Assembly: GCA_965208125.1 (NCBI GenBank)
Contig: OZ242320.1
Span: 5,472,001 to 5,536,000 of the forward strand
Length of the DNA: 64,000 bases
Source: Candidatus Latescibacterota bacterium
Lineage (GTDB): Bacteria; Latescibacterota; UBA2968
Reading direction: 5' to 3'
Shown here: positions 7,013-10,000 of the stretch, in pieces
Layout of the letters: each line of letters opens with the position of its first letter
Numbering within the stretch: position 1 is the stretch's first letter
The notes under the pieces: generated by a model
The model's database searches: none
Told to the model about the DNA's origin: nothing
What the model saw: the letters and a program-made list of their open reading frames with translations, nothing else
Position numbers and translations under genes: made by a program

Positions 7013-10000
7013 ACCGGTAACCCCACAAATAACCGACTGTACTCATCCGTCAACGGATCGCGCTCGCCCTTTTGCGCTGCGCGGGCAAATACCACGCCCG
7101 GCGTCTCCGACCTGCGTGCCCGCGCAAAAACACCATATCCACCGGGCGCACTCTGCGTTTCCAGATCGCTCTGAATCGCCAGCATCTCCGCCAGCGCATT
7201 GGCCAAACCCCAGCGTGCACCAATCGCCCGAGCAAAAAGCTCCTCTGGCGTCAGCCCCTCTCGAAAACCGCGCTTCAGAGGCGTGACTCCGCCCCAGGCG
7301 TTCTGCGTCACACCCTGGGGAGCCACATACAGCCGGACTTGCTGCCAATTGGCACGCGCACCACATTCCACCAGAAGCGCAGGAATCCCGAGATCATCGT
7401 CGTCATATCCGCGGAACTGCGCCAACACAGCCGACACCTCATCGGGATAATCGCGCCAGACATCCGGATCATCGCCCTCTGGCGGACCGGGCCAATCGAG
7501 CGACGAACCGATAAACGCACTCATCGACGCACCTGTCTTGCGCGCGGCATCAAACCCCTTATCCCACAACCGCGCTGCCAGATCCAATGCAGCCTTCGCA
7601 CCATCGCGAGCCATTGCATCTGCCATCCAGCCCATCACCTGATGCTTATCGACAAATAATCCATTTCGCTCCATCTCGTCGCCGACAATCTCCGCAATCT
7701 CCTGCCCCCCCTCATCCGTCATACTCATATACGCCAGGCCAAACAGCGCATCGTGCATCGGGTGTACCTTCTCCCGTACAATCAGCCCCGGATCCCGAGT
7801 CAGATGCGCCACCGCCGACAGATGCTCTTCAGCCGACCACTGACCTTCTTCAGTCACCGGCACAAAAATCGCCACCTGATCGCCGTCAAAATCCATATTC
7901 ATCATCTTGCAAATCGCCACACTCACGCGCACGGCATCATCCGCCACGCGCACCGGACGACACGCCACAAAAGCCATTGGCGAAAACGCGGGATTGCGAA
8001 GCACCACAGTCCATAACTCAGCCATAGCCGCATCCAGGGCTTCCTCCGCTTTACTCGACCGCCTATCCACTTCTTCAGCACCCACCTCTCGTGCTGCAAA
8101 CGGCCCGAACAACGTCCACGCCATTTCTTCGGGCACACCGACCTGATCGTATCGCAATTCGGGTGCAGGCACAGCCACCGAACGCCCGCTGAACAACGCA
8201 CGCGCCTGAAATTGCAAACGCGACAACTCGCAAAATGCGCGAACCCGCTCAGAAAGCGTTTCAACCGCCCGATCCACCAGCACATCTGGCGCGCCATTGG
8301 CAATCATCTCCGCCAATCGGTCATTGGCTTCTCGCAATGCGAGAGGCACATCTTCTCCACTCACATGAGTCAACGAATGCCCCGGCAACCACGGATGCGG
8401 AACCGAACGCGCAAGCGCGAAATCTCCATCGCGCTTCAATGAAAACTCGGCACCGCGTTCATCCAGCGCAACAGCCACCCCACCTTTCGACAAATACCCA
8501 ATTAGCTCATCAAACTGAGGAGACGGCACAGTGGGAGCAACAGGACCTACAATGACGCGTTCTGCCAGAGTATCGGCATCATCTCGATCTACCGCGCACG
8601 TATTGAACAAATCGCCAATCACCCCAAAAGCACCCGCTTCTCGCAACGCCAAAAACTCTGTCTCGCCCAACCCTTGATCGTGTTGATCCGGCTTCACACC
8701 CATGTGAATTTTATCTGCCGCCAGATGCAACGTGCGCCCCCAATACACCCACCCCACTGTGGTACGGCGCAGTAGCGCTTCCCCATTCACCGTCAGCGTC
8801 TCCATACCATCTTCTGCCAGCCCATTAGCACTCAAACGACCGCGTATCTCATCGTCTTTGGGCGCATTGAGCGCGGGAACAATAACCGGCTCCCCCTCGG
8901 CCTTTGCAATGCGCCCGACCACAGCTTCGCGCAACTGTCCAATATTCAACCGCGACGGTAAACCACATACACTCACAATAAGCTCCACAGGCGTGCCATC
9001 TGGCAATTTGGGCATCTGTTCATCTCGCACAATGCGCGACACCACCCCCTTAAAACCGTGTCGATTGCTCAGCTTATCGCCCGGCGCAACGCGATTGGGC
9101 AGCATCAGCCGGTTCGCCGCGGATTCGCTGATCACAACTGCATCTTCATGTGCATCCCCATTCCACGCCATAAACGCGGTCAGCAAATTGTACCCCGTCC
9201 AGAAATGCGGATCGCGCGGTTCACATCCCGTTTGCACCAGCGCGGGTTCCGACTCCAGTATCTTGCCGTCATATTGCGTGTGATACGCGTGCCACACACC
9301 CTGCTCATCGCGCTGCATATCGGGACCCGGCGCGCCAATCCACTGCCGCATCATATTCACACCCATCAAAACGCGATTGGTATCATTGTGTTCCAAAAAC
9401 GGAACCACCGAAGCGCCTATCCCCAACCGCTTTTCAGGCGCATCGTCTTCAATCACCAGCTTGCCATCGCGAATAGTCGCCCCCTGAGCCACCTCTAAAA
9501 TCCGCGCGAGATTCGGCCCCTCAGGCGTACAATAAGGACACACGCGCCCATCGTGTGACGGATGATAGCAATTCTCTATTCCCTCATCGGCCTCACCGAT
9601 AATTGGGATCAACGTCACCCGCCGCAAATGAACGTACATATCCTGCAAATTGGTCGCCTGCAAATACTGAGAGGTCGGTTCTTCCGTAAAAAATGTGTGA
9701 ATCCAATCTCCCAACTGTATCCATGTTTCAACTGTATCATCCAGTATCTCTGGCATATTTTCCAGCCGCTCGGCAATATAATCGCGCAATTGCTCCCCCA
9801 CACACCGAATCTCAGCACGCACCAAATCCACATCAGTCGGCGCGGGAACTACCGTCCGAAAAAAACCATCCACCTTAAACCGACCCCATTCATCGGGTTG
9901 AGGAATATTGTTGTACACGATCTCTTGCCCCCCCTGAATCGCGAGATGCAATTCACAGGTATATTCATCCACCGACACCACCCGATACCCCGCCAGCGAC

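Follow-up and report, generated by a model that had tools for sequence, protein, structure and literature searches.

In the canonical bacterial RNA polymerase (RNAP), domain 2 of the sigma factor is bound by the coiled coil of the beta' clamp and domain 4 by the tip of the beta flap, and in the open complex of sigma-H the zipper and the zinc-binding domain of beta' touch the spacer DNA (PMC6411747). Here we analysed a stretch of 64,000 nucleotides (nt) from a Candidatus Latescibacterota bacterium (assembly GCA_965208125.1, contig OZ242320.1, positions 5,472,001 to 5,536,000; hereafter the window). It encodes a clearly bacterial beta-beta' polymerase, fused into a single chain, that lacks the flap and nearly all accessory parts and yet is the near-constant companion of a sigma factor belonging to the extracytoplasmic function (ECF) type.

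Compared with a bacterial core carrying an ECF sigma factor, as in the Mycobacterium tuberculosis sigma-H holoenzyme (PMC6411747), the locus is alike in the catalytic motifs, the bridge helix and the coiled coil of the polymerase, in the possession of sigma domains 2 and 4, and in the AAC-N18-GT(C/T) spacing of the promoter. It differs in that the polymerase is one chain of ~1030 amino acids (aa) and not ~2500 aa in two, that the flap with the flap-tip helix, the lobe, the zipper, the zinc-binding domain, the lid, the rudder and, judged by length, most of the trigger-loop segment are absent, and that the contact residues of the coiled coil are changed. There is no sign that it uses alpha or omega, although no test was aimed at this. 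Full-length fusions with beta followed by beta' in one chain are described for Wolinella and Candidatus Adlerbacteria (PMC11515920; NF011417, NF007172). These are the complete and only RNAP of their cells, with models of 2839 and 2890 positions, whereas the fused polymerase of the window has lost ~60% of these residues and is an extra paralogue. The 982-aa Rpb2::Rpb1 protein Orf6 of the yeast killer plasmid pGKL2 resembles it in the order of the halves, in size and in the deletion of about half of the residues, a state reached independently; Orf6 is of eukaryotic descent, plasmid-borne and described without a sigma factor (PMC2919709). The flap insert, which holds the initiation factor, is reported to be kept in every cellular RNAP described to date, and even the killer-plasmid enzyme retains it in the beta barrel, unlike the family described here (PMC7824862).

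Phage enzymes provide the other comparisons. YonO of the Bacillus SPbeta prophage is likewise a single chain with both barrels, no flap insert and few accessory domains, but it is phage-borne and is described as having only few residues in common with multisubunit polymerases (PMC5467207, PMC7824862). From YonO so described, the fused polymerase is set apart by being plainly derived from beta and beta', chromosomal in the loci seen and tied to a sigma factor. The non-virion RNAPs of the jumbo phages phiKZ and AR9 are also reduced and beta/beta'-like, and need a dedicated specificity subunit (PMC7598289, PMC7824862); they are reported to do without alpha- or omega-like gene products (PMC2919709). 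They consist of several polypeptides, keep the flap insert and, as described, use no sigma-family factor (PMC7824862), in contrast to one chain, no flap and an ECF sigma factor in the window. Our literature search, with subscription papers and bioRxiv supplements outside its scope, found no account of a flap-less fused beta-beta' polymerase tied to an ECF sigma factor.

A reduced beta-beta' fusion polymerase

The segment 8225-9190 (minus strand), on which the initial annotation was centred, covers residues ~312-634 of the 1040-aa open reading frame (ORF) 7003-10125. The likely true start of the protein is M13 at position 10089, giving 1028 aa, because a database protein of 100% identity has 1028 aa and the homologues begin at M13; residues 1-11 are disordered in the AlphaFold2 model, with a predicted local distance difference test (pLDDT) value <50. 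Pfam matches to RNA_pol_Rpb2_6 (5.8e-39, 134.7 bits against a cut-off of 23.4) and RNA_pol_Rpb1_2 (9.4e-15, 55.7 bits against 25.3), with Rpb2_3 barely above its cut-off (1.3e-4), identify the protein as a beta-then-beta' fusion. Since a normal rpoC-type frame of 1368 aa is present elsewhere in the same genome, which is a single 5.75-Mb contig, the fusion is an extra paralogue. Its scores against the NCBIfam models for rpoB, rpoC and the fused beta/beta' protein (167.8, 99.5 and 167.7 bits) lie below the respective cut-offs of 801, 963.5 and 4632 bits.

Profile search against the PDB gave E 2.5e-78 to a Clostridium beta subunit and E 1.1e-50 to a beta' subunit. The AlphaFold2 model, made from a 72-sequence alignment, reached a pLDDT of 93.9 and a predicted template modelling score of 0.92. 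For its beta half, ~500 residues could be aligned over the full length of beta/Rpb2 chains, at Z ~30. The best Foldseek matches of the model are bacterial and plastid beta chains, and with the whole model Foldseek and VIA-align returned beta/Rpb2 chains only, among the matches listed. In PHROGs the best matches were two profiles of 1191 and 1216 positions listed as 'unknown function', which are taken to be full-length beta-like and beta'-like families. PADLOC contained no defence-system family matching the fused polymerase and gave only marginal hits for the sigma factor (9e-4), and on these grounds a reading of the module as a defence system was dropped.

BLASTP against E. coli K-12 beta aligned the protein in four collinear blocks: residues 67-93 with beta 120-146, 142-209 with 502-572, 227-263 with 654-690, and finally 311-334 with 797-820 together with 340-556 with 1054-1341, so that the beta homology reaches the last beta residues (~556 = beta 1341). 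Residues 335-339 are five residues that stand in for the 233 residues of E. coli beta 821-1053 holding the flap, a range that presumably also includes an E. coli-specific insertion. From E327 to G349 the junction has 23 residues in 68 of 72 homologues, and it is the most conserved stretch tested (96th percentile in sliding-window conservation). The initial annotation was therefore correct that the beta flap has been removed and bridged by a few residues, and the flap-tip helix that would receive sigma domain 4 is absent with it. The beta-type double-psi barrel around the junction is present, with the ED pair E327/D328 (E. coli beta E813/D814) and the GDK...KG motif, whose lysine-containing form GDK...HG.KG is aligned to beta 1054 onward. 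The lobe region has shrunk from ~350 beta residues to ~45. Residues 148-170 align with E. coli beta 508-530, which we take to be the rifampicin-binding region; the stretch is kept and differs at several positions. Some relatives (P0029 and the same-genus genomes G007, G013, G033, G052 and G053) carry an extra stretch of ~24 residues near residue 480, which repeats the preceding ...DKIHMGV... and splits the matches in two within one open frame.

The beta' half begins ~14 residues past the end of the beta homology. Its first strand, residues 569-579, corresponds to E. coli beta' 105-115 by pattern (L, A, H and W, with Pro in the family consensus) and without a BLAST match; residues 569-576 form a strand in the model. 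Across 28 sequences H577, P578 and W579 do not vary, and in 72 sequences these three residues and L571 are at least 90% conserved. In the profile search (row 6j9e_D) the beta' homology begins near beta' residue 80. No cysteine occurs in residues 540-600, and with a beta' start near ~105 this means that the four-cysteine zinc-binding domain and the preceding zipper are absent. That beta' starts past the zinc-binding domain, as initially annotated, was thereby borne out, while the likeness to the strand IELASPTAHIW cited in its support is a pattern match only. Between beta' W115 and N276, a range in which we place the lid by assumed domain limits, ~160 residues are cut to about 21, and the rudder region, ~30 residues after the coiled coil in E. 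coli, is missing.

BLASTP against E. coli beta' (E 5e-21) starts at N601 = N276 and ends at beta' 786, a range that takes in the coiled coil and a switch-2-like segment as well as NMDFDGD and the bridge helix. The coiled coil is homologous to E. coli beta' ~270-306 and is modelled as a helical hairpin (helices 595-609 and 614-631), which agrees with the initial assignment of a retained clamp coiled coil. Counted as residues 596-631 it has 36 aa in 67 of 72 homologues, and its conserved positions are A600, N601, R603, L604, A612, P613, L616, A620, L624 and V628. The beta'-type double-psi barrel is present with its three-aspartate Mg site of the NADFDGD type; F746, D747, G748 and D749 never vary among 28 sequences, and over 72 sequences the conservation of D745-D749 is at least 90%. 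From the bridge helix to the C-terminal helix there are 19 residues in 55 of 72 homologues, by length too short for a canonical trigger loop. The deletions hence go beyond the flap and the zinc-binding domain named at first, to the lobe, the lid, the rudder and, judged by length, most of the trigger-loop segment. What is kept is the active centre, with its two double-psi barrels and the NADFDGD-type motif, together with the ED pair, GDK...KG, the fork loop, the switch-2-like segment and the bridge helix.

The protein belongs to a large unnamed family present in several phyla. Of 8000 candidates scored in a word-indexed search, 1588 proteins had E <= 0.001. The best 120 of these show one or both of the two Pfam domains, and the sole name given is 'hypothetical protein' (5 of the 120 rows). 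An exhaustive search of 50%-identity representatives gave 334 proteins with E <= 1e-30, many of ~1000 aa and 34-59% identity. The loci fetched from reference genomes belong to Latescibacterota, which are the closest at 74-92% identity, to Armatimonadota/Chthonomonadales, to Planctomycetota, and to metagenome-assembled genomes (MAGs) of Spirochaetales and Caldilineaceae, and in the loci seen the gene is chromosomal. Within the phylum of the window the polymerase was found in 52 of 151 genomes (E <= 1e-100), including all 19 other genomes of the same genus, with a patchy presence in the rest of the sample. The losses of the flap and the zinc-binding domain and the kept coiled coil are real, family-wide characters. 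In one Planctomycetales MAG (L028, 6473-11344) the sigma gene, matched by tblastn in two pieces that differ in frame, and the polymerase gene, with ORFs of 273 and 882 aa, look frameshifted, which may reflect a decaying copy or an assembly error.

The linked ECF sigma factor and the conserved promoter

Like other ECF (group 4) sigma factors, the sigma factor contains only domains 2 and 4 (Pfam Sigma70_r2 1.5e-18, r4_2 9.9e-15) and scores 122.5 bits with TIGR02937 (cut-off 42.9); no narrower NCBIfam model exceeds its cut-off. The longest ORF would start at GTG 12613, which falls within the -10 element, and ORF lists overextend the gene by 9 codons. Because GGAGG is followed by TTG 12586 and the orthologues begin at that position (M-T/A-P-S-D), the gene was assigned to 11981-12586, with a product of 201 aa. 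In region 2.2 the protein carries a DLxQE-type motif, presumably the canonical form, with D47 and Q50 invariant and L48 and E51 at least 90% conserved. The linker between domains 2 and 4 has a conserved motif with the consensus VPGWMIDRA; the linker is reported to be the least conserved part of ECF sigma factors (PMC6411747).

An orthologue of this sigma factor (43-99% identity, tblastn) lies upstream of the polymerase gene on the same strand in 34 of 35 fetched loci, and the remaining locus is a fragment of 1151 bp without flank. In most loci no more than ~100 nt separate the sigma stop codon from the start of the polymerase gene, or the two overlap. Clustering of the neighbouring ORFs identified sigma and polymerase as the only neighbours common across phyla, and the same clustering of the fetched loci revealed no conserved anti-sigma factor or other conserved regulator beside sigma. 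In the 151-genome sample of the phylum, with a threshold of E <= 1e-30 for sigma orthologues, 52 genomes have the polymerase, 51 have the sigma factor and 50 have both; in the single sigma-only genome sigma lies at a contig end. Two genomes bear two copies, each as an adjacent sigma-polymerase pair, namely G063 (in two places) and G146 (on two contigs). The initial annotation had described the sigma gene as adjacent, which holds in most relatives; in the window the gene of an ATP-binding cassette (ABC) exporter (10132-11925) lies in between. This exporter occupies the same place in 9 fetched loci, while sigma and polymerase abut in other close relatives, and it is a lineage-specific cargo, the sole cargo of the insulated operon.

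The sequence TGAAC-N15-GGTGTC, conserved across phyla, stands with the same spacing in front of sigma in the window as well as in 31 of the 35 loci, 28-237 nt ahead of a conserved Ser codon of sigma. Among the other 4 loci, two have one-step variants (a spacer of 14, and GGGGTC) and two could not be evaluated. When counted as AAC-N18-GTC, the promoter has the spacing of the M. tuberculosis sigma-H optimum, given as GGAACA, a 17-bp spacer and GTT (PMC6411747). The promoter is most probably read by its own sigma factor, which would amount to autoregulation. Both pairs of G063 bear TGAAC...GGTGTC, with a spacer of 14 in one and 15 in the other, and since the motif is shared, nothing at the level of the promoter would keep the paralogous pairs apart.

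In the genome of the window the exact pattern gave 3 matches against 2 in the control. A position weight matrix (PWM) scan of the 5.75-Mb genome scored the promoter of the operon, itself part of the training set, at 34.5 bits and the next site at 18.4 bits, compared with maxima of 19.9 and 17.4 bits in reversed-sequence controls. Above 16 bits there were 17 further sites, none above 18.4, against 7 in the reversed controls. A crude test, which scored the true promoter wrongly as well, placed 14 of the 17 within long open frames.

Proposed docking of sigma and competing explanations

The reading that we put forward, with evenly balanced confidence, is a two-protein transcription module in which sigma domain 2 docks on the coiled coil of the small polymerase. 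The ECF sigma factor and the single-chain, half-size RNAP would be made from one insulated operon whose conserved ECF-type promoter is read by its own sigma. The small polymerase may be taken as a working nucleotidyl transferase, because its complete active centre is kept, and sigma domain 2 on the clamp coiled coil would complete a two-protein holoenzyme of ~140 kDa. Among the known docking sites for sigma, the polymerase keeps only the clamp coiled coil, and its clamp is pared to little beyond this element; selective retention of the coiled coil for the docking of sigma is a reasonable inference, which the strict linkage makes more attractive. Use of the TGAAC-N15-GGTGTC promoter by the small polymerase would require domain 4 to be kept at its usual distance by something other than a flap tip. 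Candidates would be the conserved linker of sigma or a different surface, for instance the beta C-terminal helix (H536-547), which is retained and the counterpart of which touches sigma-H domain 4 in M. tuberculosis (PMC6411747).

The initial annotation had proposed co-folding of the polymerase with sigma and promoter DNA and mapping of conservation across homologues. Co-folding sigma with residues 290-1040 gave an ipSAE of 0.43 (0.42-0.47 between runs) against 0.00 for the best of 3 controls, with a partner pLDDT of at least 65 and at least 34% of contacts shared between runs. This result is graded 'weak support'. The mark applied is reached by 116 of 157 solved complexes and by 2 of 215 mismatches; at 0.60 or under, those reaching it are only 18 of the 157 solved complexes plus both passing mismatches. 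Since sigma and beta' are a solved textbook pair, the pass may come from likeness to solved complexes. In the conservation mapping the length of the coiled coil was steady, as given above, and its surface was poorly conserved. The bridge helix falls even lower on the same measure, and the measure is accordingly blunt.

Several observations weigh against docking. The coiled coil lies at the 29th percentile of the sliding windows of the protein. In E. coli beta' the substitutions R275Q, E295K and A302D are reported to impair holoenzyme formation (PMC8321222), and these positions are A600, A620 and R627 in the small polymerase. Family-wide, 51 of 72 homologues have Ala at the first of these positions, 46 have Ala at the second and 28 have Arg at the third, and the residues other than Ala at the E295 equivalent are mostly Ser, Thr or Gly. 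The small residues at the first two positions count in favour of docking, since a packed interface would look like this, and so does the conserved linker motif of sigma. Against it again, the coiled coil of the host beta' has R, E and A there and is nearly identical to that of E. coli, and the sigma factor with its DLxQE-type region 2.2 looks fit for the host core. Further, the co-fold reported no interface in which the coiled coil could be placed as the contact site, the promoter has exactly the spacing of a flap-containing holoenzyme, and the PWM scan of the 5.75-Mb genome made no second promoter or target visible besides the operon itself. In two genomes the polymerase stands without a sigma orthologue, both genome-wide at E <= 1e-30 and in the 1.6 kb upstream of the gene: in G142 (L046) the polymerase gene is truncated and lacks the first ~100 residues, and in G148 (L045) it is full-length. 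The initial annotation had taken retention of the sigma domain 2 site as backing for a link with the ECF sigma factor. The link itself comes out much stronger, with 34 of 35 loci and 50 genomes of the sample holding both genes, whereas docking as the reason for the retention is not favoured by the variable coiled coil with its Ala/Ala/Arg replacements. The expectation of a non-canonical -35 geometry found no support, as the sole recognisable cognate promoter, AAC-N18-GTC, has ordinary ECF spacing.

Given the weak co-fold, the variable and changed coiled coil and the ordinary promoter geometry, sigma may also, or only, use the host core. In the stricter form of this explanation, which we consider rather unlikely, sigma serves the host core alone and switches the operon on, while the small polymerase works free of sigma, as YonO does, and its coiled coil is structural or receives another factor. 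The promoter geometry would then be that of a canonical ECF holoenzyme with domain 4 on the flap tip, which in E. coli is required for use of the -35 element (PMC8321222). The contrast between the canonical host coiled coil and the variable one of the small polymerase, changed at three contact positions, the type of region 2.2 and the full-length polymerase gene of G148 with no adjoining sigma all fit this explanation, as does the report that ECF sigma factors usually autoregulate and are co-encoded with the genes they regulate (PMC7826278). On the other hand, a self-activating sigma factor with neither an anti-sigma factor nor another conserved regulator would run away, the linkage is tighter than is usual between regulator and target and the pairs duplicate jointly, the paring of the clamp nearly down to the coiled coil would need another reason, and the co-fold, weak as its support is, separates from the controls. 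Should sigma only switch the gene on, the family would still be a widespread and unstudied second bacterial RNA polymerase.

The coiled coil might instead be kept for a role unrelated to sigma, either because the RNA-DNA hybrid needs a scaffold at its upstream edge or because a factor of the NusG/Spt5 type docks there; such factors are generally described as binding the coiled-coil helices in all cellular RNA polymerases. The variable surface positions and the location of the conserved ones mainly in the hydrophobic heptad core and at the tip (L604, P613, L616, L624 and V628) agree with this, but small residues are conserved at two surface positions that canonically face sigma, no NusG-like gene is linked to the module, and the lid and the rudder, neighbouring elements that handle the hybrid, were dispensable, so we judge it improbable. 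We give still less credence to the fused protein being a sink, an anti-sigma decoy core with little or no transcription. The missing classical anti-sigma factor and the negative feedback that co-expression from one operon would build in speak for a decoy; the conservation of the whole active centre across phyla at 35-50% overall identity speaks against it, and a decoy of 1000 residues would be costly where 50 residues of coiled coil suffice.

If the two proteins do form the proposed module, the pair would define the minimal needs for sigma-directed initiation, show how -35 recognition is organised without a flap, and provide a compact, promoter-specific polymerase of the multisubunit type, encoded by two genes, for use in structural studies and in synthetic biology. 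An extended form of this proposal, which we advance tentatively and with some doubt, is that a chain of ~115 kDa and an ECF sigma factor of ~23 kDa constitute the smallest natural sigma-dependent machine, initiating without flap, zinc-binding domain, alpha and omega, with domain 4 set by a new contact through the linker or the beta C-terminal helix. Such a machine would be orthogonal and horizontally mobile, kept beside the main polymerase in several phyla, perhaps as a reserve insensitive to inhibitors or regulators that target the main enzyme.

Operon borders, expression and neighbouring genes

The transcription unit consists of the promoter, sigma, the ABC exporter where present, the polymerase and a terminator, and it is bounded on the 5' side by the terminator of the upstream gene; both terminators are strong (Table 1).

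Table 1. Coordinates of the polymerase-sigma operon and its features in the window.
Feature	Position	Strand	Description
Intrinsic terminator of the upstream gene	12712..12739	-	12-pair stem followed by a T run; insulates the 5' side of the operon
ECF-type promoter	12609..12634	-	TGAAC (12634-12630), 15 nt, GGTGTC (12614-12609); conserved; preceded by a T-tract
Ribosome-binding site	12594..12598	-	GGAGG, 7 nt ahead of the TTG start
ECF sigma factor	11981..12586	-	201 aa; start TTG 12586
ABC exporter	10132..11925	-	Fused membrane and ATPase domains; Pfam ABC_membrane 5.7e-33, ABC_tran 1.8e-29
Fused minimal RNAP beta-beta' (P0001)	7003..10125	-	1040 aa as the longest ORF
Flap-deletion junction	9073..9147	-	Spans E327 to K351 inside the beta double-psi barrel; placed by BLASTP with E. 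coli beta
First beta'-like strand	8389..8421	-	Residues 569-579; ~14 residues past the end of the beta homology
Clamp coiled coil	8233..8343	-	Residues 595-631; homologous to E. coli beta' ~270-306
Catalytic Mg-binding motif	7879..7902	-	NMDFDGD, residues 742-749; aligned to E. coli NADFDGD
Bridge helix	7153..7248	-	Residues 960-991; BLASTP to beta' 786; single 32-residue helix in the model
Intrinsic terminator of the operon	6883..6915	-	14-pair stem followed by a T run; ~90 nt past the polymerase stop

Metatranscriptome contigs of close relatives cover sigma, the ABC exporter and the polymerase, and one of them bridges the junction of the ABC and polymerase genes. Three contigs from two studies end at 12611-12621, which is 9-19 nt upstream of the start predicted from the -10 element; such contigs can neither define RNA starts and ends nor exclude DNA carry-over. 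They are compatible with expression of the module and are no proof of it.

Past the operon terminator, at 4708-6791 (minus strand), are genes for a repressor of the BlaI type and for an M56 peptidase that resembles BlaR1 and is fused to two TonB C-terminal domains. They have a sigma-70-like promoter of their own at 6856-6828, and the locus L005 has two such pairs.

Upstream of the operon, at 12763-14859 (minus strand), are genes for two soluble proteins, one of 310 aa with no family hit and one of 345 aa with an N-terminal C4 zinc finger of the DksA/TraR type (3.1e-8). Both were considered as candidate anti-sigma factors and set aside: they are soluble, a terminator lies between them and the operon, and only close relatives conserve them. 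Fingers of the DksA type bind the secondary channel of RNA polymerase, and a link of the 345-aa protein to the small polymerase is conceivable. The two proteins are found beside the module in 15-16 loci, all of them in Latescibacterota.

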